DNA of 64,000 nucleotides from an uncultured Rhodospirillaceae bacterium. GTDB lineage: Bacteria > Pseudomonadota > Alphaproteobacteria > SP197. The position numbers and the translations under genes are program-made. A model generated the notes under the pieces. That model worked only from the letters and a program-made list of their open reading frames with translations. It had not been told where the DNA came from and made no database searches. Shown piece after piece: positions 16,061-35,689 of this stretch (its first letter is position 1; the number at the start of each line of letters is the position of its first letter). The stretch is from NCBI GenBank assembly GCA_937880925.1, contig CALGGB010000095.1, forward strand, positions 4,782 to 68,781. Reading direction: 5' to 3'.

Positions 16061-16178
16061 GAACCATTCACAATGGCCGATTGACCCCGGCCACAGTGAG
16101 GCCATAATCCCGCTTTGGGGCGACCGGCCCGCGAACACGCAGCAAGCGGCGTCGGATCGGTCTCGATTGGGAGGAACC

Positions 16179-17780
16179 ATGCATTCTCGTCTTTTCACGC
16201 TGGCCGCCGGCGCAGCGCTTACGCTGGTGCTCGCGACGGCACAGGCACAGGCCGATAAGACCCTGGTCTATTGCTCGGAGGGCAGCCCCGAGGGCTTCTA
16301 CCCGGCGCTCTACACCTCGGGCACGACCTTCGATGCCACCTCGCGCACGATCTACAACAAGCTTGTGGAGTTCGAGCGCGGCTCCACGCAGGTCGTGCCG
16401 GGCCTGGCCGAGAGCTGGGAAATCTCCGACGACGGGCTGGAATACACCTTCCATCTCCGCAGCGGGGTCAAGTTCCAGAGCAGCGACAGCTTCACCCCGA
16501 CGCGTGATTTCAACGCCGACGACGTGGTCTTCAGCTTCATGCGCCAGTGGGATCCCGAACACCCCTACCATCTGGTTTCGGGCGGCTCCTACGAGTACTT
16601 CAGCGGCATGGACATGCCCAACATCATCAAGTCGATCGAGAAGGTCGACGACATGACGGTGAAGTTTACGCTCAGCCAGCCCGAGGCGCCGATGATCGCG
16701 AACCTCGCGATGGACTTCGCCTCGATCGTCTCGGCCGAATATGGCCAGGCCATGCTCGATGCCGGCACGCCGGACGCCTTCGACCAGAACCCGATCGGTA
16801 CCGGCCCATTCCAGATGGTGCGCTACGTTCCAGACGAGCGCATCGACTACGTCGCCTTCGACGATTACTGGGCCGGCCGCGCCGCGATCGATCGTCTGGT
16901 CTTCCTGATCACGATCGATGCCACGCAGCGCTACAACAAGCTGCTGGCCGGCGAATGCCACATCATGCCCTATCCCAATCCCGCCGATGTCCAGGCCATG
17001 ATGGACAATCCCGACATCACGGTCATGGAACAGGCGGGCCTCAACGTCGGCTACCTCGCCATGAACGTCGAGCACGCCCCGTTCGACGACGTGCGGGTGC
17101 GCCGCGCCGTCAACATGGCGATCGACCGCGATGCGATCATCGATGCGGTCTATCTGGGTGCAGGCGTCAAGGCCAAGAACCCGATCCCGCCGACGATCTG
17201 GTCCTACAACGACGCGGTCGTGGACTACGAATACGATCCCGAGGCGGCCAAGGCCCTGCTCGACGAGGCCGGTGTCCAGGATCTCAGCGTCACCCTCTGG
17301 GCGATGCCGGTGCAGCGGCCCTACAATCCTAACGCTGCCCGTATGGCCGAACTGATGCAGGCCGATCTTGCCGAGGTCGGCATCACCGCCGAGATCGTCA
17401 CCTACGAATGGGGCGAGTATCTGGAGCGTTCGTCCAAGGGCGAACACGACATGGTCCTGCTCGGCTGGACCGGCGACAACGGCGATCCCGACAACTTCCT
17501 CAACGTTCTTCTGGGTTGTGCGGCGGCCAAGGACGGCCCCAACCGCGCCCGCTGGTGCGACGAGGACTTCGAGGCGCTGATCTCGCAGGCCAAGCAGATC
17601 AGCGATGTCGATCAGCGTACCGATCTCTACGAACAGGCCCAGGTCGTGTTCAAGGATCAGGCCCCCTGGGTGACGATCGCCCATTCGGTGGTCTTCATGC
17701 CCATGACCAACAATGTGCAGAACTATCTGATCGATCCGTTCGGCGGCCACGTGTTCTACGGCGTCGATCTGGCTGAATAA
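16179..17780 (+). CDS. ABC transporter substrate-binding protein, family 5 (DppA/OppA-like peptide/opine type)
   Basis: ATG 16179 preceded by GGGAGGA. Signal peptide plus family-5 SBP similarity over 530 aa. Confidence 0.85.
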
Positions 17781-17855
17781 CGGACCGCGGGGGCGCTCCG
17801 GTATGCGGGCGGCAGGCGCAAGATTGCCTGCCGCCCGCATCGTTTCAGGCATGCC

Positions 17856-18875
17856 ATGCTGAAGTTCTTCTTTCGCCGCGCCAGCCTCGTCATCCCGACT
17901 TTCCTGGGGGTGACGCTGCTGACCTTCGCGCTCGTCCGCCTCGTTCCCGGCGACCCGCTGGAGATGATGGCGGGTGAGCGCGGCCTGACGCCCGAGCGCC
18001 ATGCCGAACTGATGGCCCAGTACGGCTACGACAAGCCCCTGCTGGAACAGTACGGCCTCTATCTCTACGAGCTTGCCGGCGGCGATTTCGGCCGCTCCGT
18101 CGTTACCAAGAAGCCGGTCCTGCAGGAATTCTTCGAGCGCTTCCCCGCGACCGTGGAACTGGCCGTCTGCGCCATGTTTTTTGCCGTCCTCATCGGCCTG
18201 CCCATGGGCATTCTGGCGGCGGTGCGGCGGGGTACCGTGCTCGACTATGCGGTCATGGGCACGGCCGTCACCGGCTTTTCGATGCCGATCTTCTGGTGGG
18301 CGCTGCTGCTGGTCCTGTTCTTCTCGGTCAACCTGGGCTGGACGCCGGTCTCGGGGCGCATCTCCGCGCTCTACTGGGTCGATGCCCGTACCGGCTTCAT
18401 GCTGATCGACAGCCTGCTTTCCGACGAGAAGGGCGCCTTCCGTTCGGCGGTCAGCCATCTCATCCTGCCGGCGGTGGCGCTGGGCACCATCCCGCTGGCG
18501 ATCATCGCGCGCATGACCCGCTCCTCCATGCTCGAGGTCCTGAACGAGGATTATGTGCGCACGGCGCGAGCCAAGGGCCTTTCGCCCTTCCGCGTCGTCA
18601 CCGTGCACGCCCTGCGCAATGCGCTGATCCCCGTCGTCACCGTTGTCGGCCTGGCGACCGGCATCCTGCTCGCGGGCGCCATCCTCACCGAAACCATCTT
18701 CTCCTGGCCGGGCATCGGCAAATGGCTGATCGAGGCCGTACGCCGGCGCGACTATCCCACCGTGCAGGGCGGTGTGCTGCTGGTCGCCACCATCATCATG
18801 CTGGTCAACCTCCTGGTCGACCTGCTCTACGGCGTCATCAACCCGCGCATCCGCCACGCTTCGGAGCGGACATGA
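17856..18875 (+). CDS. ABC transporter permease (DppB-like)
   Basis: 339 aa with 6 TM segments and the binding-protein-dependent permease EAA-region. Confidence 0.85.
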   Translation: MLKFFFRRASLVIPTFLGVTLLTFALVRLVPGDPLEMMAGERGLTPERHAELMAQYGYDKPLLEQYGLYLYELAGGDFGRSVVTKKPVLQEFFERFPATVELAVCAMFFAVLIGLPMGILAAVRRGTVLDYAVMGTAVTGFSMPIFWWALLLVLFFSVNLGWTPVSGRISALYWVDARTGFMLIDSLLSDEKGAFRSAVSHLILPAVALGTIPLAIIARMTRSSMLEVLNEDYVRTARAKGLSPFRVVTVHALRNALIPVVTVVGLATGILLAGAILTETIFSWPGIGKWLIEAVRRRDYPTVQGGVLLVATIIMLVNLLVDLLYGVINPRIRHASERT

Positions 18876-19768
18876 CCGACCGCACCCTCGATACGGCGCC
18901 GTCAAAGCCGCCCCATCCGCTGCAGGACATCTGGGCCGATTTCCGCCGCAACCGCGGCGCCATGGTCGGCCTGGCGCTGATCCTGATCGTCACCTTCCTC
19001 GCGGTCTTTGCCGATGTCGTCGCACCCTACGGCCCGGCCGAGCAGTTTCGCGATGCCTTCCTCTCACCCCCCGCATGGCTGGAGGGCGGCGATCCCCGCT
19101 TCCTGCTCGGCACCGACGATGTCGGCCGCGACATGCTCTCGCGCCTGATCTACGGCGCCCGCCTGTCGCTGCTGATCGGCGTGGTTGTCGTTACCCTGGC
19201 GCTTGCCGCAGGCGTCACCCTGGGCCTGTGCGCCGGTTTCTTCGGCGGCATTGTCGACATCGTCGTGATGCGCCTGATGGACATCATGCTGGCGCTGCCG
19301 GCCCTGCTGCTCGCCATCGTCATCGTCGCCATCCTGGGGCCGGGCCTGATGAACGCCATGGTCGCGGTGACGGTGGTCGTGGTGCCCCACTACGCGCGCC
19401 TGACCCGCGGCGCCGTGCTCTCCGAACTCGGTCGTGACTACGTCACCGCCTCGCGTGTCGCCGGCGCCGGGCCGTTGCGCCTGATGTTCGTCACGGTCCT
19501 CCCCAACTGCCTCGCCCCGCTCATCGTGCAGGCCACACTCGGTTTCTCCGGCGCCATCCTGGACGCTGCAGCGCTTGGCTTCCTGGGCCTGGGCGCGCAG
19601 CCGCCGACACCCGAATGGGGCTCGATGCTGGCCAACGCCCTGCAGTTCATCCAGCGCGCCTGGTGGGTCGTCACCTTCCCGGGGCTGGCGATCCTTGTCA
19701 CGGTGCTTGCCTTCAACCTGATGGGCGACGGCCTGCGCGACGCCCTCGACCCCAAGCTCAAGAGGTAG
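18872..19768 (+). CDS. ABC transporter permease (DppC-like)
   Basis: ATG 18872 overlaps the upstream stop (ATGA). The longer track ORF from 18296 is an out-of-context extension. Confidence 0.85.
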
Positions 19769-19772
19769 CGCG

Positions 19773-20747
19773 ATGCCTCTTGTGGAAATCCGCAACCTCT
19801 CCGTCCGCTTCGGCAGCCTCACCGCCGTCGACGGCATCGACCTGGTGCTGGAGGAGGGCGATGTCCTGGGCATCGTCGGGGAGTCCGGCTCGGGCAAGTC
19901 CGTCACCTCGCTTGCCCTGCTGGGCCTCATCGGCTTCCCCGGCGTCGTCACCGCCGACCGCATGACCTTTGCCGGGCGCGACCTGCTGCACGTCTCGCCG
20001 CGCGAGCGTCGCAGGATCGTCGGCAAGGACATGGCGATGATCTTTCAGGAGCCCATGACCAGCCTCAATCCCTGCTTCACGGTCGGCTTCCAGATCATGG
20101 AGCAACTCCGCGTCCACGAGGGGCTGGACCGGCGTGCCCGGCGTGCCCGCGCCATCGAACTGCTCGATCTCGTCGGCATCCCCGATGCCGCCTCACGCCT
20201 CTCTGCGTTCCCGCACCAGCTTTCGGGCGGCATGAACCAGCGCGTGATGATCGCCATGGCGATCTCCTGCAACCCGCGCCTGCTGATCGCCGACGAGCCG
20301 ACCACGGCGCTCGACGTCACCATCCAGGCGCAGATCCTCGACCTGCTGCTCCAGCTCCAGCGCGAACGCGGCATGACCCTCATCCTCATCACCCACGACA
20401 TGGGCGTGGTCGCCGAAACCGCGCGCCGGGTCGCCGTGATGTATGCCGGGCAGGTGATGGAGGAACGCGCCGCGATCAACCTCTTCACCCGACCGCGTCA
20501 CCCCTACACCGCAGCCCTGCTGGAGGCGCTGCCCGAGCGCGCCCTGGGCAAGGGCCGGCTGCCGGCCATTCCGGGCACCGTGCCCGGCGTCTATGACCGC
20601 CCGCCCGGCTGCCTCTTTGCGCCGCGGTGCCGCCTGGCCGACGATGCCTGCCGCGCCGCCGTGCCGCCGCTGCTCGATGTCGCCGACGGCCGCGTGCGCT
20701 GCATCCGCCCGCTGGACGCCCCCATGCCGGTGGAGAGCGCGCCGTGA
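19773..20747 (+). CDS. ABC transporter ATP-binding protein (DppD-like)
   Basis: Walker A GESGSGKS, signature LSGGMNQR, C-terminal oligopeptide-type extension. Confidence 0.85.
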
Positions 20748-21727
20748 GCGAGAAGCCCATCCTGGTCGCCCGCGATCTCGCCCGTTTCTACACCGTGCGG
20801 CGCGGCGCCTTCCGCAAGCCCGCCACGGTGAAGGCGCTGAACGGCGTCTCCTTCGAGCTCTATCGGGGCCGCACCCTGGCGGTGGTCGGGGAATCAGGCT
20901 GCGGCAAGTCGACGCTCGCCCGGCTTGTCACCATGATCGAGAAACCGACCTCGGGCAGCCTGGAGATCGAGGGCCACGACATCGCCACCGCCGGCAAGCG
21001 CGACGTCGAGGATCTGCGCGAGGAGGTCCAGATCGTCTTCCAGGACCCTTATGGTTCGCTCAATCCGCGCCGCAAGGTCGGCGACATCCTGGGTGAGCCG
21101 CTGGCGATCAACCGCGCCATGAGCCGCACCGAGCGCCGCGAGGCCGCGCGCGCCATGATCGAGAAGGTCGGCCTGCGCCCCGAGCACATCGACCGCTACC
21201 CGCACATGTTCTCGGGCGGCCAGCGCCAGCGCATCGCCGTAGGCCGCGCGCTGATGCTGAACCCGAAGATCGTCGTCGCCGACGAGCCGGTCTCGGCCCT
21301 TGACATCTCGATCCAGGCCCAGGTCTTGAACCTGCTTTCGGACCTGCAGCAGGAATTCCAGCTCGCCTATCTCTTCATCAGCCACGACCTCTCGGTCGTG
21401 CGCCACATCGCCGACGACATCATGGTGATGTACCTGGGCCGTCCGGTGGAGCAGGGCGAGGGTGCGGTCGTTTTCGCCGAGCCGCGCCACCCCTATACGC
21501 GCGCCCTGATGGCCGCCACACCCCGTGTCGATCCGCGCCAGCGCGCCGAGCGCGTCATGCTGAAGGGCGAACTGCCAAGCCCCCTCAATCCCCCCAGCGG
21601 CTGCGCCTTTCACACCCGCTGTCCGTTTGCGACATCGCTGTGCAGCGCCGAGCGCCCCGAACTGCGCCCCGTCGCCGGCCGCCTGGTCGCCTGCCACCAC
21701 GCTGAACATTTAGAAAATAGCAGATAG
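20744..21727 (+). CDS. ABC transporter ATP-binding protein (DppF-like)
   Basis: GTG start overlapping the upstream stop. Walker [10 protein letters not shown], signature FSGGQRQR. Confidence 0.85.
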
Positions 21728-21774
21728 AAAATAGAGAGCTGCGGCCGAAAGGCTCGCACCCCTATTTCCTAACT

Positions 21775-21802
21775 CCTCTTTTCTCTTTTCTCTTTTCTCT
21801 TT
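21775..21802. repeat. Heptanucleotide microsatellite (CTCTTTT)x4 with degenerate flanking copies, inside a roughly 100-bp AT-rich patch
   Basis: Direct read of 21775-21802. Degenerate copies extend to about 21818. Sits in the convergent spacer between dppF-like (+) and the last EctC-like gene (-). Confidence 0.8.
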
Positions 21803-21810
21803 TCTATTTC

Positions 21811-22641
21811 CTAATTTTCCGGCCCCGCCGGCACCGGCCCCGTCGGGGGATAGCTGCCGTCTTCGTCGTGCAGTTCGTTGCCGTGGAGCGGCGGGTTGAA
21901 GATGCTCAGCACATGGGAGTCCTCGGCGATCCGCACATGATGGCGGTCCCTGGGGCCGACGGCGAAGATGCTGCCGGTGCCGATGTCGTGGGTCTTGCCC
22001 GTGGCGTGGTCGGTGACCACGAGCAGGCCATCGAGCACGATGTTGGCCTCCCAGTGGTTCTTGTACCAGAGTGCCATTTCCTGGCCCTTCCGGAAGCGCA
22101 CGTCCGAGAGGGTGAAACCCAGCCCGTCCGGCGCGGTCAGCAGGCGCGCCCAGCGCGGCGAGCCGCCCTCCTTGACCACGACATGGCCGGCGGCCTCGGC
22201 GTCCTTCCAGGTGCGCACGAACATCGCCGGCTGTCCGGGCGGGATCTCGCCGCCGGGCGGATAGCTGCCGTCTGCATCGTGGCTCTCGCCGCCCTGCAGC
22301 GGCGGGTTGAAGACGCTGATGATGCGGAAGCCTTCGCCACCGGCGTTCTCCAGGCGGTGGCGGTCGGTCGGGCCGACGCAGTAGAGCATGCCGGGTTCAA
22401 GCTGCCAGACCTGGCCGGTGGTCAGGTTTTCCAGCGTGCCCGTGCCCTGGCGCACGTAGTTCGCCTCCCAGTGGTTCTTGTACCAGAGGGTCGCGTTGCC
22501 GCCCGGCGCGCCGCGCGCCTCCGAAAGCGAAAAGCCGATGCCGTCGGAGCGGTTGATCATGCGCAGGGCGCTCGACCTGCCCTGGTTGATGGCGATCAGG
22601 CGATCGCCGCTCTCCATCTCCTCGAGCGTGCGGACCAGCAT
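21811..22641 (-). CDS. Didomain ectoine-synthase-like protein (two tandem EctC-type cupin domains), paralog 6 of 6
   Basis: N-terminus MLVRTLEE mirrors EctC MIVRNLEE. Both halves carry WYKNHWEAN, the cupin motif RH[RH][LV], and NPPLxGxExHDxDGSYPP. Confidence 0.8.
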   Translation of the reverse strand: MLVRTLEEMESGDRLIAINQGRSSALRMINRSDGIGFSLSEARGAPGGNATLWYKNHWEANYVRQGTGTLENLTTGQVWQLEPGMLYCVGPTDRHRLENAGGEGFRIISVFNPPLQGGESHDADGSYPPGGEIPPGQPAMFVRTWKDAEAAGHVVVKEGGSPRWARLLTAPDGLGFTLSDVRFRKGQEMALWYKNHWEANIVLDGLLVVTDHATGKTHDIGTGSIFAVGPRDRHHVRIAEDSHVLSIFNPPLHGNELHDEDGSYPPTGPVPAGPEN

Positions 22642-22657
22642 GGTGTTCTCCTCGGTG

Positions 22658-23473
22658 TCAGGTTTGCGGCCCCGGCGGCAGCGGGCCGGTGGGGGGATAG
22701 GCGCCGTCCTCGTCGTGCACCTCGGTGCCCGAAAGCGGCGGGTTGAACAGGCTCACGATGTGGAAGTCGCGCACCGCCTTCAGCGTGTGGCGGTCGTCGG
22801 GCCCCACGGCATACATCATGCCCGGCGTCAGCTTCAGTACCTCGCCGGTGCCGTGGTGGTGCAGTTCGCCCTCGCCGCCGAAGACATAGTTGCCTTCCCA
22901 GTGGTTCTTGTACCAGAGGTTGGCTTCGCTGCCGTCCTGGAAGTGAACGTCCGACCAGGTCAGTCCCAGGCCGTCGGCATCCAGCAGATAGCGCAGCAGT
23001 TGCGAGCCGCCCTTGCTCGTCTTGGCGCGGCCCATGGCCTGCAGGTCCGCCGGGCGATAGACGAACATCGCCTCGTGCCCCGCGGGCGGCGGCGTGGCGC
23101 CGCGGGGATAATTGCCCTCCGCGTCGTGGCTTTCCGTACCGCTCAGCGCCGGGTTGAAGACCCCCAGCACCGTGCATTCGGTGAGGTCCGTGACGCGATG
23201 GTGATCGTTCGGACCGACGCAGTACATGTCGCCCGGCCCAAGTTCCCAGCTCCGCTTCTCGCCCGAAAGCTCCTCCAGCAGGGCGCGGCCGGAGATCATG
23301 TAGCTCGCCTCCCAGTGATGGCGGTACCAGATGGTATGCGGCCCGCCCTTGGGCGCGGTGACCACAGAGATCGAGAAGCCCAGCCCGTCGCCGGCCAGCA
23401 GCAGGCGCTGGGTGTTCGCCCCGCCGTGGGAGATGGCGGTGCCGTTGAGGTCGGTGCGCGTGCGGTGGAACAT
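22658..23473 (-). CDS. Didomain EctC-like cupin protein, paralog 5
   Basis: 271 aa with two EctC-like halves (WYRHHWEAS / WYKNHWEGN; C-terminal NPPLSGTEVHDEDGAYPPTG). Confidence 0.8.
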   Translation of the reverse strand: MFHRTRTDLNGTAISHGGANTQRLLLAGDGLGFSISVVTAPKGGPHTIWYRHHWEASYMISGRALLEELSGEKRSWELGPGDMYCVGPNDHHRVTDLTECTVLGVFNPALSGTESHDAEGNYPRGATPPPAGHEAMFVYRPADLQAMGRAKTSKGGSQLLRYLLDADGLGLTWSDVHFQDGSEANLWYKNHWEGNYVFGGEGELHHHGTGEVLKLTPGMMYAVGPDDRHTLKAVRDFHIVSLFNPPLSGTEVHDEDGAYPPTGPLPPGPQT

Positions 23474-23476
23474 CGC

Positions 23477-24292
23477 TCAGATCCCTCCCGGGCCCGGCGG
23501 CACCGGCCCGGTTGGGGGATAGCCGCCCTTGTCGTCGTGCAGCTCGTCGCCGGCCAGCGGCGGATTGAAGATGCTGACCAGATGCAGGTCGCTGCCCGCC
23601 GTCAGGGTATGGCGATCCTCCGGCCCGACACAGTAGAGCAGGCCGGGCGCCAGAATCAGCGTCTCGCCGGTACCGTGATGGTCGATCGTGCCGCTGCCGG
23701 AAAAGACATAGTTGGCTTCCCAGTGGTTGCGGTACCACAGGTTGGAGACGACGCCGTCCCTGAAATGAACATCCGACCAGGCAAAACCCAGCCCGTCCTC
23801 GGCCAGCAGGTAACGCAGCAGTTCGGCGTTGCCGGAAGCGCTGGTCTTGGCACGGCCCCGCTGCTTCAGATCACCGGGCGTGACGACGAACATGGAAGGC
23901 TGCCCCGCCGGCACGTTGCCGGTGGGCGGATAGGTGCCTTCGCTGTCATGAGTCTCGTCGCCGTTGATCGGCGGGTTGAAGACGCTCATTACCGTCATCG
24001 GCGTCTGCGCGGTGACCCGGTGGCGGTCGGTCGGGCCGACGCAGTACATGTCGCCCGCCGTCAGGTCCCAGGTCCGCCCGCTCGCCACCTCTTCCAGGAG
24101 AAGCTCCCCGGCAATGACGTAGTTGGCCTCCCAGTGGTGCTTGTACCAGAGCTCGTGCGGCCCGCCGGCCGGCCCGGTGACGATCGAGAGCGAAAAGCCC
24201 AGGCCATCGCCTTTCGTCAGGGGCCGCGCCGCGCTCGCCTTTCCGTGGGAGATGGCGACGCCGCGCGCCGTGTCGATGCTGCGATGGAACAT
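23477..24292 (-). CDS. Didomain EctC-like cupin protein, paralog 4
   Basis: 271 aa. Both halves EctC-like (WYKHHWEANYV / WYRNHWEANYV). Confidence 0.8.
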   Translation of the reverse strand: MFHRSIDTARGVAISHGKASAARPLTKGDGLGFSLSIVTGPAGGPHELWYKHHWEANYVIAGELLLEEVASGRTWDLTAGDMYCVGPTDRHRVTAQTPMTVMSVFNPPINGDETHDSEGTYPPTGNVPAGQPSMFVVTPGDLKQRGRAKTSASGNAELLRYLLAEDGLGFAWSDVHFRDGVVSNLWYRNHWEANYVFSGSGTIDHHGTGETLILAPGLLYCVGPEDRHTLTAGSDLHLVSIFNPPLAGDELHDDKGGYPPTGPVPPGPGGI

Positions 24293-24296
24293 GGTG

Positions 24297-25124
24297 TCAG
24301 CTTCCTTTCGGTCCGGGCGGCACGGGGCCGGATGCGGCGAGCGTGCCCTCCGCGTCGTGAATCTCGTCGCCCCGCAGGGGAGGATTGAAGACAGAGATGA
24401 GGTGAAGGTCTTCCTCCGCGTGCATGGCGTGGCGGTCCTTGGGCCCGACGCAGTACATCATGCCCGGCTCCATCACCCAGCTCTCTCCCGTCGTCAGGTC
24501 CTCGACGCGGCCGCGCCCGGAGAGCACCACGTTGGCCTCCCAGTGGTGCTTGTACCAGAGCGTATTGCTGTTCCCCGCAGGCATGTGAACGTCGCTCAGC
24601 GTGATGCCGACATCGTCCTCCTGCGTCAGCATGCGCAGGGTCGTCGCCGAGTCCGCGGCGGCCGAGAGAAGGCGTCCGGCATCGCTCAGTTCCGTCACCG
24701 ATTTGGCGAACATCTTGGGCTGGCCCGCCGGCACCGGCCCGGTCGTGGGATAACTGCCGTCGGCGTCATGCTCCTCCTCGCCCGACAACGCTGGGCAGAA
24801 GACGCTGACGATGTGGCAATCCCCGCTCGCCACCATGCGATGCCTGTCCCGCGGCCCCGCGACATAAAGCAGTCCCGGCTCCAGCCGCCAGGTGCGTCCG
24901 TCGTCGAGGTCGGTAACGGTGCCCGCGCCCGCCACGATGTAGTTGGCTTCCCAGTGATGCTTGTACCACAGCGTGAAATCCATCCCCGGCGCCAGCCGCA
25001 CGTCCGACAGCGAGAACCCCAGCCCGTCATCCTTCGCCAGCATTCGGGTCGAGACAGTCTTGCCCTCGCACAGCACCTTCTGGCGCGGTGTGCCGGTCAG
25101 CTCCTTCAGGGTGCGTGCGAACAT
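24297..25124 (-). CDS. Didomain EctC-like cupin protein, paralog 3
   Basis: 275 aa. Both halves EctC-like (LWYKHHWEAN in each). Confidence 0.8.
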   Translation of the reverse strand: MFARTLKELTGTPRQKVLCEGKTVSTRMLAKDDGLGFSLSDVRLAPGMDFTLWYKHHWEANYIVAGAGTVTDLDDGRTWRLEPGLLYVAGPRDRHRMVASGDCHIVSVFCPALSGEEEHDADGSYPTTGPVPAGQPKMFAKSVTELSDAGRLLSAAADSATTLRMLTQEDDVGITLSDVHMPAGNSNTLWYKHHWEANVVLSGRGRVEDLTTGESWVMEPGMMYCVGPKDRHAMHAEEDLHLISVFNPPLRGDEIHDAEGTLAASGPVPPGPKGS

Positions 25125-25133
25125 GGCGCTCTC

Positions 25134-25946
25134 CTAAACCCAGGCTTCCGGCACGGCTCCGCCCGGTGGATAGCCGCCCAGGTCATCGTAGCGTTCGGTG
25201 CCGACAAGCGGCGGGTTGAAGACGCTGAGCCAACGCACGCCGTTGCTGTTGCTCACACGGTGCTTGTCCTTCGGGCCGATGACGAAGAGGTCGCCGGGTT
25301 CCAGCGCGTGAGTCTTGCCGGTCGCCTTGTCGAGCACTTCGGCCGAACCCTCGACCAGGTAGTTCGCCTCGACATGGTGGCGGTACCACAGGTCGATCCC
25401 GAGGCCCGGCTTGGTCGTGAGGTCCGAGAGCGAAAGGCCGATACCGTCGGCGGCGAGCAGGGGACGGTGGACACCAGAGCTGCCGGTGCTGAGTTCGGTG
25501 CGCACATAGTCGCGCGGGCCGCGCACGAACATCGTCCTTCCGCCGTTGCCCCACCCTTCCGGCAGGGGCCCCGATGTTGCAAAGGCGCCATCCGCGCCCT
25601 TCTCCAGGATCAGGGCGGGCGTGAACATCGAGAAGGTCGTCCACGGCCCCTCGAAGGCGATGCTGTAGCGGTCGTCGGGACCGACGACGTAGAACGAACC
25701 CGGCTCCAGCGGCCATGTCTGCCCGTCCTCGCGCGTGATGCGGCCCGTGCCCTCCAGCACGTAGTTGCCCTTCACATGATGCGGGTAGTTCAGCGGCCCG
25801 GTCTCGATCGGTTCATCGGATTCGACCGTCGCAAGGGCAAAGCCGGTGCCTTCGTCCCGGGTCAGGTAGATCAGCGCGCGGGCGCCGGCGCCAAAGGGGG
25901 TCTCGCGGGCGCTGCCTGCGAGGTCGCGCTTGCGGATCACCAGCAC
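25134..25946 (-). CDS. Didomain EctC-like cupin protein, paralog 2. N-terminal half degenerate.
   Basis: C-terminal half retains WYRHHVEANYLVEG...NPPLVGTERYDDLGGYPPGG. N-terminal half has lost the WYKNHWE and ExHDxDG blocks. Confidence 0.7.
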   Translation of the reverse strand: MLVIRKRDLAGSARETPFGAGARALIYLTRDEGTGFALATVESDEPIETGPLNYPHHVKGNYVLEGTGRITREDGQTWPLEPGSFYVVGPDDRYSIAFEGPWTTFSMFTPALILEKGADGAFATSGPLPEGWGNGGRTMFVRGPRDYVRTELSTGSSGVHRPLLAADGIGLSLSDLTTKPGLGIDLWYRHHVEANYLVEGSAEVLDKATGKTHALEPGDLFVIGPKDKHRVSNSNGVRWLSVFNPPLVGTERYDDLGGYPPGGAVPEAWV

Positions 25947-25998
25947 CCCCGGACCTCCCAGGCTCGTGTTGTCGTCGCCGTCGGTACATGGGTGGCGT

Positions 25999-27174
25999 TC
26001 ATGTTGCCTGCTTTCCGCGCGGGATCAATTTTTCGGCGTCATAGAACGGCAGCGCAACGGTCTCTCCCGGCACGGCGTCGGGGCCGCAGGCGACGTGGCG
26101 ACCGGTCCAGTCGCCCGGGGCATCGAAGCGCGCATAGGCGACATGATGCCCCAGGAACGGCGAGAAAGCCGACGCGGTGATGCGCCCGGCCGGCTTGCCG
26201 TCGACCGCCAGAGTCATGCCGGCGGCGATCTCGGCCTGCGCTTTCAGGCCCACGAGGCGGGGCCGCCGGTCGGCGTCGACCAGTGCCTCGCGGCCGATGA
26301 AGTCTTCCTTGGTCAGGTCGACGAACTGTCCGATGCCCGCGGCAAAGGGTGTCATCGAGGGGTTCATGTCGGTGCCGTTGTCGAGGATGCCGCTTTCGAT
26401 GCGGCGGATGTTCATGCACGACATGGAGGCAAAGCGCATCCCGTGGGGCTTGCCCGCCGCCATCAGGTGGTGCCACAGGGTGGCGTGGTCAGCGGTTTCC
26501 GGCACGTAGATCTCGAAACTCAGCTCCCCGGTCCAGCCGGTGCGGGTGATGAGCAGCGGCTGGCGCGCCATGGTCACCTGCGCGCAGGAGAAGTAGGGGA
26601 AGGGATCGGGCGCGCCGCCGTCGCAGAGGTCGGCGAGCACATCCATGGATTTCGACCCCTGTACCTGGAGCACCCAGTCCTCGGTGTCGACGATCTCGAC
26701 ATCGAAGCCCTTCTGGTGCGCCTTGAGCCAGCCGAAGATCTCGCCGTCGGCCAGCACGTAGCGGAAGTGGTCCTCGGCGAGGCGGATCAGCACGCCGTCC
26801 ATCAGCACGCCGCCGTCATCGTAGCACATCAGACCGTAGCCGCAGCGCCCCACCTTCATTGCCGAGATGCGGCGGGTCATCAGGTGGTCGAGGAATCGCG
26901 CGGCGTCGGGGCCGACGAACTCGATGGCGTGCTCGGGCACGTCGAACAACGTCGCGGCCTTGCGCAGGTTGGCGTATTCGGCCTCCACGTCATCGTCGAG
27001 ATAACCCGGGGACATGTGGCCGCTGTAGACCGAGAAGGATGCGTTGGGCCCGATCCGGTCCTCGTAGAACGGGATGAAGGGAGACGCGCGCAGACGTCCG
27101 AAACGCCAGGGGCGCACGGGCAGGCTGCGGCCTCGGCCGGTACGGGCGGTATGTCCAGTAGCCTGGTTTGTCAT
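25999..27174 (-). CDS. Aminomethyltransferase family protein (GcvT/DmdA-like folate-dependent demethylase)
   Basis: 391 aa with glycine-cleavage T-protein fold similarity. Embedded in the EctC-like operon. Confidence 0.7.
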   Translation of the reverse strand: MTNQATGHTARTGRGRSLPVRPWRFGRLRASPFIPFYEDRIGPNASFSVYSGHMSPGYLDDDVEAEYANLRKAATLFDVPEHAIEFVGPDAARFLDHLMTRRISAMKVGRCGYGLMCYDDGGVLMDGVLIRLAEDHFRYVLADGEIFGWLKAHQKGFDVEIVDTEDWVLQVQGSKSMDVLADLCDGGAPDPFPYFSCAQVTMARQPLLITRTGWTGELSFEIYVPETADHATLWHHLMAAGKPHGMRFASMSCMNIRRIESGILDNGTDMNPSMTPFAAGIGQFVDLTKEDFIGREALVDADRRPRLVGLKAQAEIAAGMTLAVDGKPAGRITASAFSPFLGHHVAYARFDAPGDWTGRHVACGPDAVPGETVALPFYDAEKLIPRGKQAT

Positions 27175-27185
27175 GTCCGCGTCCT

Positions 27186-28025
27186 TCAGCGCCAGGCCGC
27201 GGGGATCTCGCCCGTGGGCGGGTAGGCGCCGTCCGCGTCGTGGGTCTCGCCGCCGACAAGGGGCGGGTTGAAGATGCTCAGGATGTGGATGCCGTCCGTG
27301 TTGGTCACGCGGTGGCGGTCCCTGGGGCCCACGACATAGAGCGTGCCGGGCACCAGCGGCCAGGTCTTGCCGGTCGCCATTTCCATCACCTCGCCGCCGC
27401 CCGAAACCACGAAGTTGGCCTCGACATGGTTCTTGTACCAGAGCTGGCTTGCCCCGCCTGGCTTGGCGCGCAGGTCCGACAGCGTCATGCCGACATCATC
27501 GGCCTTGGTCAGGTAGCGCCTTGCTTCCGCCCGGCCTCCGCCCAACTGCACCACAGGAATGTCGGCGAGTTGCTTCACGAACATCCGCCGGCTGGTCGGG
27601 CTGCCGCCCGCCGGACCCCAGGCCTCAGGAATCTCGCCCGAGGGAGGGTAGCCGCCGAAGTCCTGGTGCTGCTCGTTGCCCTTGATCGGCGGGTTGAACA
27701 GCGAGATTACCTTGACGTCGCCCCGCAGCATGACCTCGTGGCGGTCGGCCGGCCCGACGACATAGAGGGTGCCGGGAGAGGCCGGCCAGCGTTGGTCTGT
27801 ATCCAGGTTGTGAATCTCGCCCACGCCTTCCAGGACCAGATTGACCTCGATGTGGTTGCGGTAATGCAGGGGGAAACCGGAGCTGCCGCCGGGAATTTCC
27901 AGCGTCGAGAAGGAAAAGCCGCAGCCGTCCTCTTCCGCCAGGTAACACATGGCGTGGGCTTTGCCGCCTGCGACCATGCGGTCGCGGCCGGTTCCTGCGA
28001 TATCCGCGATCGATTTCACCAGCAT
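27186..28025 (-). CDS. Didomain EctC-like cupin protein, paralog 1 (first gene of operon)
   Basis: ATG 28025 (MLVKSIADIAG..., with SD GGGAAGGA) is preferred over the track's GTG at 28052. Both halves EctC-like (HYRNHIEVN / WYKNHVEAN; NPPLVGGETHDADGAYPPTG). Confidence 0.75.
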   Translation of the reverse strand: MLVKSIADIAGTGRDRMVAGGKAHAMCYLAEEDGCGFSFSTLEIPGGSSGFPLHYRNHIEVNLVLEGVGEIHNLDTDQRWPASPGTLYVVGPADRHEVMLRGDVKVISLFNPPIKGNEQHQDFGGYPPSGEIPEAWGPAGGSPTSRRMFVKQLADIPVVQLGGGRAEARRYLTKADDVGMTLSDLRAKPGGASQLWYKNHVEANFVVSGGGEVMEMATGKTWPLVPGTLYVVGPRDRHRVTNTDGIHILSIFNPPLVGGETHDADGAYPPTGEIPAAWR

Positions 28026-28150
28026 GGTCACATCCTTCCCTGTCCAGGTCACATGACAGCCTACCTGACAGGCTGCTGCAAGTCGCAGGTGGCCGTGCTA
28101 AATCTTGCCGTCCATGGGGACTATTCCCACAGTACGGAAAGGGCAGGGCG
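28026..28150. promoter_or_regulatory. Divergent promoter/leader region between the EctC-like operon (-) and the cupin/DoeB-like operon (+). Contains the dyad CAGCCT-N7-AGGCTG (28058-28076).
   Basis: Sequence inspection. The dyad lies 33-51 bp upstream of ATG 28025. Confidence 0.4.
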
Positions 28151-28498
28151 ATGGAGCTTCGAAGCCAGGGTGACTACGTGATCGACGGCACGGAAACCGT
28201 TGCCGAGGGTGCCGACATGATGGTCTCCATCCTCACCCTGGGGGCCGGTCAGTCTGTCCCCTGGCACTATCACACCGAGATCACCGACAGCTTTGTCTGT
28301 CTGGAAGGTGAGCTTGTGGTGGAGACGCGGGCGCCGCGCGCGACCCATGTGTTGGCGCCTGGCCAGCGCTGCGCCGTCGGCCCCAGGACCGCCCACCACG
28401 TCCATGGCCGCGACGGCGCGGCCTGCCGCTTCCTGATTATCCAGGGGGTCGGCGTCTATGACTATGTGGCTGCAGGAGGCCAGGCCGGGTCTGCTTGA
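28151..28498 (+). CDS. Cupin domain protein (small, single domain)
   Basis: 115 aa with cupin-2-like motifs (WHYHTEITDSFVCLEGEL...HHVHG). Confidence 0.55.
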   Translation: MELRSQGDYVIDGTETVAEGADMMVSILTLGAGQSVPWHYHTEITDSFVCLEGELVVETRAPRATHVLAPGQRCAVGPRTAHHVHGRDGAACRFLIIQGVGVYDYVAAGGQAGSA

Positions 28499-28549
28499 CT
28501 CCCATCCCCGCGCCTCCGACAAGGTGCCGGGTGATCGCTGGAGTTGCCG

Positions 28550-29689
28550 ATGTCGCACGAGGTCGAGACGATACCGCTGATGGCGCCCGGGCCGGGCACC
28601 AGCCGTGCGCTGACCGTGCATCGCTTCGGCACGCGTGGCCTCGGCCCTAAACTCTATTTCCAGGCGGCGCTGCACGCCGACGAGCTGCCCGGCACCCTGG
28701 TGCTCAATCACCTCATCGGCTGGCTGGCCAAGGCAGATGCACGCGGCGAGGTCATGGCCGACATCACCGTGCTGCCCTATGCCAATCCGGTGGGCCTGGC
28801 CAACCGCATCCACGGCTATCACCTGGGCCGCTACGACCTTGATGGCGACGGCAACTTCAACCGCTGGTATCCGCGCCTCTCCGAAAAGGTCGCCGACAGG
28901 ATCGGCAATCGCCTTGGCGACGATGAAGCCGAGAACCGCGCCATGATCCGCGCCGCCGCGCTGGAGGTGGTGGAGGACTGGCAGGCCGAGGGTGAGGCCA
29001 ACGTGCTGCGCAAGGCGCTGATGGCGCTCTCGGTCGATGCCGACATGATCTTCGACCTGCATTGCCACGGCGCCGCCGTGCAGTATGCCTACTTTCCTGA
29101 AGCGCAGTGGCAGGCCTACGGCGATCTCACTGCTGAACTCGGCTGCCGCGTCGTCCTGTTTTTTCCCACCGACGAGGGTTCGACCTTCGATGCCGTCGCC
29201 AGCGTGCTGATGCACGACCTGGCGGCCCGCTTCCCGGACCGCCCGATCCCGCCGCCGCCCTTCACCACGACCCTGGAGCTGCGCGGCCAGCAGGATGTCG
29301 GCGATGCCCTGGCCGAGGGCGATGCCCGCGCCATCCTGCGCTTCCTGCAGCGCCACGGCATGGTCGCGGGCGATCCCGGCCCGCCGCCCGAGCCCTTGTG
29401 CAAGCCGACGCCGCTGGAAGGTTCCGATACCCTTGTCGCGCCCTGCGCCGGGGTGATCTCCTACCGTGTGCCCCTGGGCGGAACCGTGAAGGCGGGCGAT
29501 GTCGTGGCCGATATCGTCGATCCCGCCGTTGCCGATTTTGCCGCAGCGCGCACGCCGGTCGCCACACGCACCGGCGGCATCGTCTATGGCCGCAACGTCT
29601 CCATGCTGGTGAAGCCCGGCCAGAGCTTTGCGGTGGTTGCGGGCGATCACGCCCTGCCGCCGCCCGAGCTGCCCCTGATCGACCACTGA
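28550..29689 (+). CDS. Succinylglutamate desuccinylase/aspartoacylase (AstE/AspA) family zinc deacylase, DoeB-like, paralog 1 of 3
   Basis: ATG 28550. Zn-ligand context AALHADELPG and DLHCHG. About 380 aa, typical of the family. N-acetyl-DABA deacetylase DoeB belongs to this family (established knowledge). Confidence 0.7.
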   Translation: MSHEVETIPLMAPGPGTSRALTVHRFGTRGLGPKLYFQAALHADELPGTLVLNHLIGWLAKADARGEVMADITVLPYANPVGLANRIHGYHLGRYDLDGDGNFNRWYPRLSEKVADRIGNRLGDDEAENRAMIRAAALEVVEDWQAEGEANVLRKALMALSVDADMIFDLHCHGAAVQYAYFPEAQWQAYGDLTAELGCRVVLFFPTDEGSTFDAVASVLMHDLAARFPDRPIPPPPFTTTLELRGQQDVGDALAEGDARAILRFLQRHGMVAGDPGPPPEPLCKPTPLEGSDTLVAPCAGVISYRVPLGGTVKAGDVVADIVDPAVADFAAARTPVATRTGGIVYGRNVSMLVKPGQSFAVVAGDHALPPPELPLIDH

Positions 29690-29696: not shown

Positions 29697-30806
29697 GTGA
29701 CCCACGTCACCGAACGTTTCGATCTGCCCACCGCCACTCTGGGTACCGGCCGGCACCTGCTGGTCCATCGCTTCGGCACGGCGGGCGCGCGGCCCAAGGC
29801 CTATCTCCACGCCGGGCTTCATGCCGCGGAGCTGCCCGGCATCGTCGTGCTCGATCATCTGCTCGACCGCCTGAGTGAGGCCGATGCCGCGGGGCAGGTG
29901 ACGGGCGAGATCGTCGTCGTGCCGTTCGCCAATCCCATCGGCCTTGCCCAGCAGGTGCTGATGGAGGCCCAGGGCCGCTACGATCTCGACACCAACCGCA
30001 ACTACAATCGGGGTTTCCCCGATCTGGTCGACGGCGTGCTCGAACGTATCGAGGGCCGCCTGGGCGAAGACGGCGCGGCCAATGTCGCCGTCGTGCGCGC
30101 GGCCATGGCAGAGACGCTCGCCGCCCGGCGCGACAAACGCGAGCCCGAGGTGCTGAAGGCGACGCTGATGCGCCTTTCTTTCGACGCCGACATCGTGCTT
30201 GACCTGCATTCGGCCTGGGAGGCGTTGCTCCACGTTCTGGTCAGCGACAGCAACTGGCCGGATGCAGAGGACCTCACTCGCCAGATGGGGGCCGAGGTCG
30301 TGATGATCGATCGTGGCAACCGCATGATGACCTTCAAGTCCGCCCATGTCCTGGTCTGGAAGGCGGTCGCGGCGGCCTGGCCCGGCCTGCCGGTGCCGCC
30401 CGGCGCGCTCGCCGCCGTGGTCGAGCTGCGCGGTCAGCGCGATGTCGACGACCATCTCACGCGCCCGGATGCCGACGGCCTGTTCCACTTCCTGCAACGG
30501 CGCGGCCTGATCGCCGGCCATCCGGGCCCGCTGCCCGAAGCGCTGTGCCCCGCCCGTTCCAGCAAGGGGTTGTGGCGCCTGTTCGCCGAAACCTTCGGCA
30601 TCCTCGTCTATCACTGCGAGCTGGGCGATCGCGTGCGCGAGGGCGAAACGATCTGCCACATCGTCGACCCCGAGAGCCGCAGGCGCACGCCCGTGCCGGC
30701 GCCCATCGACGGCCTGCTCTACGCCCGCCGCAGCCATCGTTTCACCCGCCAGGGCCAGTACTTCTGCGCTATCGCCGGCGACATGCTGCACGAGACCGCG
30801 CCATGA
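29697..30806 (+). CDS. AstE/AspA family deacylase, DoeB-like, paralog 2
   Basis: GTG start. AGLHAAELPG and LDLHSAWEA motifs. Collinear with paralogs 1 and 3. Confidence 0.7.
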   Translation: MTHVTERFDLPTATLGTGRHLLVHRFGTAGARPKAYLHAGLHAAELPGIVVLDHLLDRLSEADAAGQVTGEIVVVPFANPIGLAQQVLMEAQGRYDLDTNRNYNRGFPDLVDGVLERIEGRLGEDGAANVAVVRAAMAETLAARRDKREPEVLKATLMRLSFDADIVLDLHSAWEALLHVLVSDSNWPDAEDLTRQMGAEVVMIDRGNRMMTFKSAHVLVWKAVAAAWPGLPVPPGALAAVVELRGQRDVDDHLTRPDADGLFHFLQRRGLIAGHPGPLPEALCPARSSKGLWRLFAETFGILVYHCELGDRVREGETICHIVDPESRRRTPVPAPIDGLLYARRSHRFTRQGQYFCAIAGDMLHETAP

Positions 30807-31930
30807 CCCATCGCATCGAGACCATCGCGCTCGATACGCCCTCGCCGGGCACGACGCGCCAGCTGATGGTCCACCGCTTCGGCCGCGGTGAAGGCCCGAA
30901 GGCCTACATCCAGGCTGCGATCCACGCCGGGGAGACACCGGCCCTGCTGGTGGCCCACCACCTGCTCGCTCTGCTCGAGAACGCCGACGTGCCGGGCGAG
31001 GTGGTGCTGGTGCCTTTTGCCAATCCCGTCGGTCTTGGCCAGCGGGTCCATGGCCGGCATCTGGGGCGCTACGACCTCGACAGCGGCGTCAACTTCAACC
31101 GCGACCTTCCGGACCTTTCCGAGGCGGTTGACGCTGCGGTGGGCGAGGGGCTGGGGAGCGACGCACCGATCAACGTCGCCATCGTGCGCGAGGCCATGGC
31201 CGAGGCGCTGGCCGGTCTGCGCATGGCGCGCGAGGGTTCGGTGCTGAAGGCGGCCCTGCTCGGCCTGGCCTGCGATGCCGACATCGTGCTCGACCTGCAC
31301 TGCGCCCAGCGCGCCCTGCTGCATCTTTTCGTCGATGCCGGCCTGTGGACCCAGGCCGCCGAGCTGCATGCCGATCTGGGCTGCGCCGTCACCCTGCTGG
31401 AGAGCGACACCGGCAGCGGCACTGCCTTCGACCACGCCTGCACGGTGGTCTGGCGCACCCTGCAGGCGCGCCACCCGGACAAGGCCATTCCCGACGCCTG
31501 CCTGGCAGCCACCGTGGAGCTGCGCGGCTTCAGCGATGTCGATGAGGACGTCGCAGCGACCGATGCCGAAAACATCCTGCGCTTCCTGCGCCGCAAGGGC
31601 GTGGTGGCGGGCGATGCCGGGCCGCTGCCGGAAGCCGTCGGCGAGGCTTATCCGCTGGAGACCGTGGGTTTTGCCGATGCGCCGGCCACCGGGATCGTCA
31701 CGTTCCGCGTGGCGCTCGGCGATCATGTCCGGCGCGGCGATGTGGTGGCCGAGATCGTCGATCCAGCCGCGCCCAGCGCGGCTGCCGCACGTACCCCCGT
31801 CACCAGCCCCACGGACGGCCTGGTCTATGAACTGGCCGACAGCCGCTTCCTCTGGGCCGGGCAGACCGTGTGCCATGTCGCGGGACGCGAACCCCTGGCG
31901 GATCAGCGCGCCAACCTGCTGGGCGACTAG
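30803..31930 (+). CDS. AstE/AspA family deacylase, DoeB-like, paralog 3
   Basis: ATG 30803 overlaps the upstream stop (ATGA). AAIHAGETPA and LDLHCAQRA motifs. Confidence 0.7.
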   Translation: MTHRIETIALDTPSPGTTRQLMVHRFGRGEGPKAYIQAAIHAGETPALLVAHHLLALLENADVPGEVVLVPFANPVGLGQRVHGRHLGRYDLDSGVNFNRDLPDLSEAVDAAVGEGLGSDAPINVAIVREAMAEALAGLRMAREGSVLKAALLGLACDADIVLDLHCAQRALLHLFVDAGLWTQAAELHADLGCAVTLLESDTGSGTAFDHACTVVWRTLQARHPDKAIPDACLAATVELRGFSDVDEDVAATDAENILRFLRRKGVVAGDAGPLPEAVGEAYPLETVGFADAPATGIVTFRVALGDHVRRGDVVAEIVDPAAPSAAAARTPVTSPTDGLVYELADSRFLWAGQTVCHVAGREPLADQRANLLGD

Positions 31931-35685: not shown

Positions 35686-35689
35686 GGCG

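Follow-up and report, generated by a model that had tools for sequence, protein, structure and literature searches.

We analyzed a 64 kb stretch of DNA (about 67% GC) from contig CALGGB010000095.1 of an uncultured Rhodospirillaceae bacterium, referred to throughout as the window, which carries an array of six genes (E1 to E6) whose products each contain two domains of the ectoine synthase (EctC) type. These genes form part of an operon of seven genes on the minus strand, in the order E1, gcvT-like, E2, E3, E4, E5, and E6, and diverge from a second operon that encodes a small cupin and three metallo-amidohydrolases (Table 1). A preliminary description of this DNA had reported six consecutive minus-strand genes with spacers of 3-16 bp. 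The ORF (open reading frame) calls agree with it on the six genes, their coordinates and their strand; however, the genes are not consecutive, since the gcvT-like gene is inserted between E1 and E2, and the intergenic spacers of the operon range from 3 to 52 bp.

Table 1. Coordinates of the bicupin operon, the divergent operon and the adjacent importer, given as positions in the window.
Feature	Position	Strand	Description
E1	27186..28025	-	279 aa double EctC-like bicupin, operon gene 1
GcvT-like gene	25999..27174	-	391 aa, between E1 and E2
E2	25134..25946	-	270 aa double EctC-like bicupin, most divergent paralog
E3	24297..25124	-	275 aa double EctC-like bicupin, in most widespread clade
E4	23477..24292	-	271 aa double EctC-like bicupin
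E5	22658..23473	-	271 aa double EctC-like bicupin
E6	21811..22641	-	276 aa double EctC-like bicupin, final operon gene
Intergenic divergent (promoter) region	28026..28150		Short direct repeats
Small single-domain cupin	28151..28498	+	115 aa, PF07883 Cupin_2 (E 1.5e-8), divergent operon gene 1
CphZ/AotO-like M14 metallo-amidohydrolase a	28550..29689	+	PF24827; ORF from TTG 28544, homologs called at 379 aa
CphZ/AotO-like M14 metallo-amidohydrolase b	29697..30806	+	PF24827
CphZ/AotO-like M14 metallo-amidohydrolase c	30803..31930	+	PF24827; ATG overlaps stop codon of b
DppABCDF-type peptide ABC importer	16020..21727	+	Convergent with array; SBP_bac_5, two permeases, two ATPases with oligo_HPY

GC content at third codon positions is of the coding type in the array ORFs (0.85-0.91), and a Shine-Dalgarno motif lies upstream of every array start. 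For E1, the ATG at 28025, which is preceded by a GGAAGGA Shine-Dalgarno sequence, is favored over the GTG at 28052, and the gene is called at the identical length of 279 aa on other contigs. At least 18 contigs, drawn from several metagenome assemblies made independently of one another, share this arrangement, which indicates that the array is not an assembly artefact; samples with identical contigs include ERZ27058894 and JGI 3300074305; these identical contigs, the 33-62% identity among the paralogs, and the presence of orthologs elsewhere also rule out a recent amplification. Two tandem repeats lie beyond the end of the operon: (CTCTTTT)x4.9, with 96% matches, at 21776-21809 in the gap between the Dpp ATPase gene and E6, and (TAGAAAA)x3.6 at 21711-21735, overlapping the end of the Dpp ATPase gene.

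Each of the six proteins matches the EctC family model PF06339 (Ectoine_synth) in two separate stretches, and likewise the NCBIfam model NF009806, giving the 12 EctC domains that had been proposed for the six genes; the sequence blocks quoted as diagnostic in the preliminary description are likewise readable in the translations. All six exceed the curated cut-offs, with Pfam scores of 132.8-232.8 bits (cut-off 27) and NF009806 scores of 140-233 bits (cut-off 128; 202 bits for E1). Whole-protein PF06339 E-values range from 1e-38 to 1e-69 (E1, 4e-58; E2, 1e-38; E3, 1e-69; E4, 4e-64; E5, 3e-60; E6, 4.5e-64). The second domain of every bicupin opens with M-F-V/A, which we read as a relic start codon, suggesting that each gene arose by fusion of a pair of ectC-type genes.

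The AlphaFold2 model of E3 (predicted local distance difference test, 95.4; predicted template modeling score, 0.92) consists of two cupin barrels, and its whole-chain Foldseek matches in the PDB are bicupins (E 1e-13 to 1e-15). The highest target-normalized template modeling scores (0.70-0.74) were obtained with 1SEF, 1SFN, and 4E2Q, which are of the ureidoglycine aminohydrolase type, a C-N hydrolase family. Because canonical EctC is a head-to-tail homodimer, the fusion plausibly hard-wires this dimer, and each bicupin would be its covalent version, a pseudo-dimer. Within the EctC type, the six proteins represent a subfamily of their own, made up of fused bicupins of about 275 aa. Searches of the searchable literature for fused, tandem or EctC-like proteins, for PF06339, and for EctC in combination with Rieske or demethylase turned up no account of a fused double-EctC protein, of the Trp21 loss reported below, or of a multi-paralog operon, in line with the preliminary description, which was not aware of a described system with fused double-EctC proteins in multi-copy tandem.

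The domains were aligned to two crystallized ectoine synthases, those of P. lautus (PlEctC; 5ONM, 5ONN, and 5ONO) and S. alaskensis (SaEctC; 5BXX), to which single domains are 22-39% identical, and the family was surveyed across 202 distinct fused members (404 domains), using the residue roles of PMC6344544. Each of the iron ligands Glu57, Tyr84, and His92 is kept in 96-100% of the N- and C-domains of these members. In the window, where the preliminary description had placed a metal site in both halves of most copies, the triad is complete in nine of the 12 domains but not in the N- and C-domains of E2 or the C-domain of E6. The E2 N-domain has Lys/Tyr/Tyr at positions 57/84/92, and Tyr84 is replaced by Phe in the C-domains of both E2 and E6. 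The His92 to Tyr and Tyr84 to Phe substitutions of E2 both recur in its ortholog in L027, a marine Rhodospirillaceae metagenome-assembled genome (MAG), which argues that E2 is a conserved variant and not a decaying copy. E1 has a complete triad in both domains, and its N-domain carries Cys in place of Arg25. Arg25, Tyr52, and Phe106 are retained across the fused family together with the C-terminal lid (FNPPL...HD..G.YP); in the window, Arg25 is kept in 10 domains and the other two residues in all 12.

Three further residues, Trp21, Asn38, and Thr40, are completely conserved in 437 EctC proteins from ect clusters (PMC6344544). According to the same study, Trp21 provides cation-pi stabilization of the activated amide and of the ectoine amidinium, Asn38 contacts the carboxylate and is part of a proton relay, and Thr40 contacts the alpha-amino group, the Asn38-Thr40 relay positioning and deprotonating the alpha-amino nucleophile. 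Trp21 is gone from 403 of the 404 family domains and from 11 of the 12 in the window; the exception in the window is the E6 C-domain, which has a Trp shifted by two residues. Thr40 has also disappeared from 403 of 404 domains, replaced by Val in C-domains and by Asn or Val in N-domains (Val, Leu, Ala or Asn in the window). Asn38 is absent from all C-domains, where Ser or Cys takes its place, and is lost in 117 and kept in 85 of the 202 N-domains; the window domains have Ser or Ala at this position. Moreover, Cys104 is changed to Ser in the fused family, and the charge of the residue two places ahead of the metal-motif "DRH" differs from domain to domain (Arg/Lys, Asp/Glu or neutral).

Since Trp21 is lost and the Asn38/Thr40 pair replaced, E1 to E6 are, as judged from these residues, not ectoine synthases. 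They have the iron ligands and the Arg25/Tyr52/Phe106 set of bona fide EctC, and lack its single domain of about 130 aa, its Trp21/Asn38/Thr40 set, and its linkage to ectA and ectB. In comparison with the orphan EctC proteins of Czech et al., they share the location outside an ect cluster and differ in having neither a Trp21 equivalent nor a single domain; in 145 orphan EctC proteins the Trp is conserved according to the authors, in some of them shifted by two residues.

Scanning one genome per species (185,579 species) identified 221 relatives of the window bicupins. Their carriers are nearly all uncultured Alphaproteobacteria (Stellaceae, Dongiaceae, Rhodospirillaceae, and others), "Rokubacteria", and some Gammaproteobacteria, and two are cultured: Dongia deserti SYSU D60009 and Taklimakanibacter lacteus SYSU D60012. 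In the protein database, the family forms more than 600 clusters (90% identity) of about 275 aa, and E3 as a query retrieved 611 homologs at E<=1e-5, most of about this length; named entries are called "ectoine synthase" or "quercetin dioxygenase-like cupin". The whole EctC superfamily contributes 777 representatives to a library of 1.84 billion representatives, and about 12 of these are full-length didomain clusters (50% identity). Most carriers have one or two copies per genome, arrays of three to five copies occur in L027, L028, L053, and L066, and the six-copy array of the window is the largest seen.

The history of the array was examined in a neighbor-joining tree, in which each window paralog is closer to orthologs elsewhere than to its array neighbors. 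The five-copy array of L027 is collinear with the window: a divergent small cupin (73% identical and in the same divergent position) is followed by an E1/E2-type gene, E3 (55%), an E4/E5-type gene (58%), a degenerate copy, and E6 (70%). Together, these two results indicate that the array is an old operon comprising four or more non-redundant paralogs, with the E1/E2 and E4/E5 pairs apparently derived from later duplications. E4 and E5, sisters in the tree and 62% identical, appear to represent the most recent of these. The paralogs had been described as 45-60% identical and the array as old and diversified; the identities over full length span a wider range (33-62%), but the age and diversification are borne out by the tree and the L027 gene order. 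The degenerate copy 4 of L027 (3695-4339, plus strand) encodes a shortened, strongly diverged double domain of 214 aa that has no C-terminal lid and may be a pseudo-enzyme. In the 93%-identical relative L083, the gcvT-like gene is retained between E1 and E2 and the Dpp importer is adjacent to the array; an acetoacetate-decarboxylase-family (ADC) gene lies between E2 and E3 on the opposite strand (4716-5528, minus), and E6 and the small cupin are missing.

The region between the two operons contains direct repeats at 28026-28074: GGTCACAT is present in two copies spaced 21 bp apart, and AC(A/C)TGACAG(C/G)CT in two tandem copies. These repeats are possible binding sites for a regulator, for which there is no adjacent gene. 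A sigma-70 consensus scan detected no promoter-like site in 28026-28150, although at 67% GC the promoter and terminator scans were uninformative (one promoter-like site found for 0.4 expected, and four terminator-like sites for 3.6). Neither a riboswitch nor another RNA leader was detected: a scan of the window at the Rfam gathering thresholds returned only a tRNA, and a permissive scan of 27900-28700 returned nothing. The small cupin that opens the divergent operon has no NCBIfam match.

The three metallo-amidohydrolases downstream of the small cupin had been assigned to the DoeB family. The divergent orientation, the cupin, and the membership of all three in the AstE/AspA superfamily hold, but the assignment does not extend beyond this superfamily: the DoeB equivalog model TIGR02994 gives 32.2, 31.6, and 28.5 bits for a, b, and c, respectively, against a cut-off of 402.7, which rules out DoeB/EutE. 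Their nearest characterized relative is AbCphZ (PDB 8EIN/8EIP; E 2e-60, with 208 bits for a), a hydrolase of cyanophycin dipeptides (beta-Asp-Arg/Lys; Sharon et al., 2023; PMC9974463), to which a, b, and c are 35, 35, and 36% identical. All three keep the zinc triad His50/Glu53/His179, the catalytic Glu251, and the carboxylate clamp Arg102/Asn112/Arg113. In CphZ, Asp222 and Glu223 form the pocket for the Arg/Lys side chain and are both essential, and Asp181 and Lys366 bind the Asp moiety (PMC9974463). Neither pair is kept in the window proteins, which have Asp/Ala (a), Lys/Ser (b), and Asp/His (c) at positions 222/223 and His/Val (a), Ala/Ala (b), and Ala/His (c) at 181/366. The seven kept catalytic and clamp residues, together with the differing pockets, suggest that a, b, and c are CphZ/AotO-like enzymes that hydrolyze N-acyl-amino acids or isodipeptides, each with a specificity of its own. 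Because both residue pairs are replaced, beta-Asp-Arg is an unlikely substrate for all three; these replacements, along with the lack of a cyanophycinase, also exclude cyanophycin-dipeptide utilization as a full explanation of the locus. The window showed neither a cyanophycin synthetase nor a cyanophycinase.

The divergent pairing of bicupins and CphZ-like genes is kept in the same species, in L083 (93% identity), and in L003 and L016 (61-68% identity), where E6 orthologs adjoin CphZ-like pairs. The a/b pair is conserved in L003, L016, L093, L094, and L095. In L093, a Rieske oxygenase gene (7653-8840) lies beside the a/b pair in the slot of the array and small cupin, at a locus otherwise syntenic with the right flank of the window; the oxygenase could be a functional replacement, or the slot could simply be variable. 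The a/b pair of L094 adjoins an Opp-type transporter and SoxB/SoxD/SoxA, and that of L095 an Opp-type transporter, with a DAO gene cut at the edge of the locus.

The gcvT-like gene inside the operon encodes both a folate-binding domain (PF01571, E 1e-52) and a C-terminal barrel (PF08669, E 2e-9), and falls below all NCBIfam equivalog cut-offs (GcvT, 178 against 300 bits; DmdA, 161 against 410; Tdm, 194 against 1100). Its top PDB matches, T. maritima GcvT and the C-terminal domain of the trimethylamine N-oxide (TMAO) demethylase, score about equally (around 145 bits). The product is predicted to be a tetrahydrofolate-dependent aminomethyl- or methyltransferase-like protein of the GcvT family. 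Within arrays, the gene is confined to the lineage of the window, and the L027 array lacks it. Elsewhere, a 73%-identical ortholog is surrounded by Rieske, MR_MLE, DAO, and S-methyltransferase genes. The gcvT-like gene and the Rieske, DMGDH-like, and DAO genes found beside other bicupins jointly point to N-methylated or N-alkylated substrates.

To describe these neighborhoods, gene context was surveyed at 66 loci with a complete bicupin gene. There is no single universal neighbor: the most frequent partner, a GbcA-like Rieske oxygenase, lies within 3 kb at 18 of the 66 loci, followed by a TauD-family dioxygenase (10/66) and a 2Fe-2S ferredoxin (9/66). At least one gene of the N-dealkylation type (Rieske, GcvT/DMGDH-like, DAO or OoxA-like) occurs within 5 kb at 26 loci. 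In L028, L053, and L066, a DHDPS-family gene is followed by three or four bicupin genes and then by DAO and opine-oxidase-like genes, with an ATP-grasp gene in L028 only. The bicupin gene of L090 lies beside two polysaccharide-deacetylase-family genes, two Creatinase_N/Peptidase_M24 genes, FMO, and PhyH, that of L086 is accompanied by amino-acid ABC systems and an Amidohydro_2 gene, and L089 has no informative neighbors. No ect biosynthetic gene was present at any bicupin locus examined. The common theme of these neighbors is the breakdown of small nitrogenous compounds, through amide-bond hydrolysis, N-dealkylation, and C1 handling. A catabolic setting, as proposed in the preliminary description, is plausible in view of neighbors that are hydrolases, importers, and C1 or demethylation genes, none of them biosynthetic.

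Taking into account these residues and neighborhoods, we tentatively propose, as the most likely of the readings considered though one short of probable, that the bicupins are metal-dependent C-N hydro-lyases in the catabolism of small N-substituted amino-acid derivatives. The retained Fe(II)-type Lewis-acid site would polarize an amide, lactam or amidine carbon of an imported derivative, whose C-N bond the bicupins would open or transfer. N-alpha-acyl products with a free carboxylate would then be cleaved by the three CphZ-like hydrolases with their differing pockets, and N-methyl or methylene C1 units would be handed to tetrahydrofolate by the GcvT-like enzyme. The six paralogs may serve different but related substrates or steps. 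We also considered, from the neighbor sets, creatinine-type rings, gamma-glutamyl amides, proline-betaine derivatives, opine lactams, and mycosporine-like amino acids as substrates; none is well enough supported.

Several observations weigh against this proposal. The hydrolytic direction is an assumption, since canonical EctC runs strongly toward ring closure and acts on ectoine in reverse only minimally, and E2 has no complete iron triad in either domain. Genomic context is heterogeneous: 40 of the 66 loci have none of the listed partner genes within 5 kb, and many of the positive loci (L005-L018) come from closely related MAGs, which reduces the independent clades to about six or seven. Both the CphZ-like pair (L093, L094, and L095) and the gcvT-like gene also occur without bicupins. 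The Dpp importer is close to the housekeeping DppA (its SBP_bac_5 protein scores 795 bits on the DppA model, cut-off 1005), and it is convergent and not co-transcribed with the array. Finally, no regulator or riboswitch able to name a ligand was found.

A wider form of this proposal, which we hold to be doubtful, is that the family constitutes a new enzyme class on the ectoine synthase fold, in which four to six specialized paralogs, possibly forming hetero-complexes, would act with CphZ-like amidohydrolases and a folate C1 enzyme in an undescribed catabolic pathway for an environmentally common N-methylated or N-acylated compound derived from amino acids. Such a compound would be, for example, an osmolyte of cyclic or isopeptide type, or some other conjugate that other microbes release.

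An alternative, in our view an unlikely one, is that the iron cupins have a redox role: they would be either oxygenases or a demethylase's metal component, from which formaldehyde or a methyl group passes to the GcvT-like protein, comparable to the fusion of a metal domain and a GcvT-like domain in TMAO demethylase. The gcvT-like gene between E1 and E2, which matches the C-terminal domain of that enzyme as well as GcvT, would fit such a role, but it is found inside arrays in the window lineage only and is missing from L027. Many bicupins are dioxygenases; however, the fused family has the Glu/Tyr/His triad and the lid of a Lewis-acid enzyme without redox function. Frequent neighbors include Rieske, TauD, PhyH, and ferredoxin genes, and a Rieske oxygenase occupies the array position in the syntenic L093, but where Rieske or Sox proteins are present they already cover demethylation, so that the bicupin probably acts otherwise. 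Genes for a glutathione-dependent formaldehyde-activating enzyme (GFA), in the window and at eight loci, would also be in keeping with demethylation.

It is quite improbable that the bicupins are biosynthetic cyclodehydratases, closing rings on precursors resembling N-acyl-diamino acids to yield one or more unknown ectoine-like solutes or natural-product building blocks. EctC runs essentially toward ring closure and is promiscuous, cyclizing glutamine to ADPC (PMC6344544), the metal site and lid are conserved in the bicupins, and solitary EctC-type genes of unknown role are already known. Nevertheless, the activators of the amine nucleophile are lost (Thr40 and, in most domains, Asn38), no acetyltransferase, diaminobutyrate aminotransferase or dedicated aspartokinase is encoded in or beside the operon, and the neighbors are hydrolases, importers, and demethylation or C1 genes.

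The preliminary description had favored ring-opening of ectoine, hydroxyectoine or close cyclic amidines by the bicupins, which would replace the M24-family hydrolase DoeA/EutD, with the AstE/AspA paralogs deacylating N-acetyl-diaminobutyrate as DoeB does. We consider this very unlikely. It had relied on EctC chemistry being readily reversible, but hydrolysis of ectoine by EctC is reported to be minimal and the reaction "practically irreversible", the H. elongata enzyme hydrolyzing to some extent only synthetic ectoine analogues whose ring is smaller or larger (PMC6344544). EctC family membership, the iron site, Tyr52, Arg25, and Phe106 would suit ectoine-type ligands, yet Trp21 and Thr40 are each gone from 403 of 404 domains and Asn38 from all C-domains and 117 of 202 N-domains. 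The divergent neighbors do belong to the DoeB superfamily, and Asp222, kept in two of them, fits an N-alpha-acyl basic amino acid; against this, their DoeB scores are 28-32 bits where 402.7 is required, and their nearest characterized relative is CphZ. As previously described, no EctA-type GNAT acetyltransferase, EctB-type class-III aminotransferase or M24 hydrolase is present among the annotated ORFs of the window. The absence of an M24 hydrolase would leave a place for the bicupins, but substitution for this enzyme is not general, since the L090 member co-occurs with two Creatinase_N/Peptidase_M24 genes. In addition, the annotated genes of the window include no EutABC, DoeCD, EnuR or Ehu/Ueh/Tea transporter, and hence no Doe/Eut cluster; ectoine transport is hinted at only by a 20-bit EhuB-like match of a binding protein (31927-32673). 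The gcvT-like gene and the Rieske and Sox partners have no part in ectoine breakdown.

Least probable of all is that the paralogs are subunits of a single hetero-oligomer in which E2 and the degenerate L027 copy 4 would be non-catalytic scaffold or substrate-binding subunits, as the conserved paralog order across distant genomes, the triad-breaking substitutions shared by E2-type proteins of both lineages, and the obligate dimer of canonical EctC are set against one or two copies in most genomes, complete metal sites in nine of 12 domains, and no direct sign of interaction.

Regarding the remaining genes of the window, the array is flanked, as the preliminary description stated, by a peptide-type ABC importer, which is convergent with it; a functional link between the two is uncertain. 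One ORF at 4915-7188 (plus strand) joins a BetI-type TetR repressor (TetR_N and TetR_C_6) to a Rieske/Ring_hydroxyl_A oxygenase and probably represents two genes. The Rieske part (about 6.0-7.2 kb) was not counted as an array partner, being 27-28% identical to the GbcA-like Rieske partners and about 15 kb away. The two GFA genes of the window lie at 54054-54905 (minus) and 62190-62651 (plus), and a GFA-like gene is near bicupin genes at the eight other loci mentioned above; these genes are consistent with formaldehyde-releasing demethylations in this genome region.

To the right of the divergent operon, a choline-sulfatase-like gene (33506-34939, minus; 273 bits against a cut-off of 433) is accompanied by a polar-amino-acid-type ABC system with two SBP_bac_3 proteins, two permeases, and an ATPase (31927-32673 and 34951-38230). 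Aminotran_5, beta-lactamase-family, two HalD-like, CMD, and NMT1_3 genes follow; of this block, the SBP_bac_3, Aminotran_5, HalD, CMD, and NMT1_3 genes are syntenic with L093. Further along, a second Opp/Dpp-type ABC system (50066-53961, minus), an S15 X-Pro dipeptidyl-peptidase gene (54929-56971, minus), and an N-formylglutamate amidohydrolase gene (58958-59857, minus) add to the potential for breaking down peptides and amides. An IS21-type IstB ATPase gene (62757-63578, minus) lies beside a tRNA gene (61589-61660, plus) close to the window's right end, possibly at the border of a mobile or variable region.

As EctC serves as a diagnostic marker for ectoine producers in genomes and metagenomes, the fused subfamily has a practical consequence. 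Its members lack essential EctC residues and ect partners, yet they are annotated "ectoine synthase" by NCBI and JGI, and hence constitute a systematic false positive in ectC surveys. The bicupins are probably an undescribed catabolic enzyme family misnamed "ectoine synthase" in databases. If the wider form of our proposal is true, the new enzyme class would give the orphan EctC branch a physiological role. The conserved multi-paralog operon with defined partners, together with two cultured carriers, offers a tractable entry to the orphan EctC question. The CphZ family, in turn, is extended to paralogs with other specificity pockets, which hints at isopeptide or N-acyl-amino-acid substrates besides cyanophycin dipeptides.

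Among known systems, ectoine breakdown by DoeA/DoeB (EutD/EutE) could follow a similar logic, in which a ring or amide is opened and an AstE/AspA-superfamily zinc amidohydrolase then deacylates the product. The window differs from it in having no M24 hydrolase, EutABC, EnuR or ectoine transporter, and in amidohydrolases that score about 30 bits against the 402.7 of the DoeB model. The CphZ/AotO enzymes share the zinc triad, Glu251, and the carboxylate clamp with a, b, and c, and the identity of these to AbCphZ (35-36%) is comparable to the 38% between AbCphZ and PaAotO (Sharon et al., 2023; PMC9974463), whereas the guanidinium pocket and the Asp-binding residues are changed in the window paralogs. 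CphZ genes associate with peptide or amino-acid ABC importers (PMC9974463). Other bicupin enzymes (ureidoglycine aminohydrolase, quercetin dioxygenase, oxalate decarboxylase, and pirin) resemble E3 in their overall two-barrel architecture, but they are only 12-15% identical to it, have other metal motifs, and lack an EctC-type lid.

Ectoine synthase itself (EC 4.2.1.108) shares with the bicupins PF06339/NF009806, the cupin fold, Glu57/Tyr84/His92, Tyr52, Arg25, Phe106, and the lid. It is a homodimer of subunits of about 130 aa, whereas the bicupins combine two domains in one chain of about 275 aa that lacks Trp21 and carries Val or Asn in place of Thr40, Ser or Cys in place of Asn38 (C-domain), and Ser in place of Cys104. 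They also differ in that they are not linked to ectA, ectB, ectD or ask_ect, number as many as six paralogs per operon, and have hydrolase and C1 neighbors. Orphan EctC proteins, like the bicupins, are encoded outside ect clusters, and some genomes have several copies (Kurz 2010; Widderich 2016; Czech 2018/2019); their metal-binding and most ligand-binding residues are conserved, and their function is acknowledged as unresolved in these studies. Solitary EctC-type proteins are therefore already known, and what appears to be new is the fused, multi-paralog form without Trp21: the described orphans are single-domain proteins with the Trp, whereas the window proteins are fused, lack it in 11 of 12 domains, and are encoded in a conserved multi-paralog operon.

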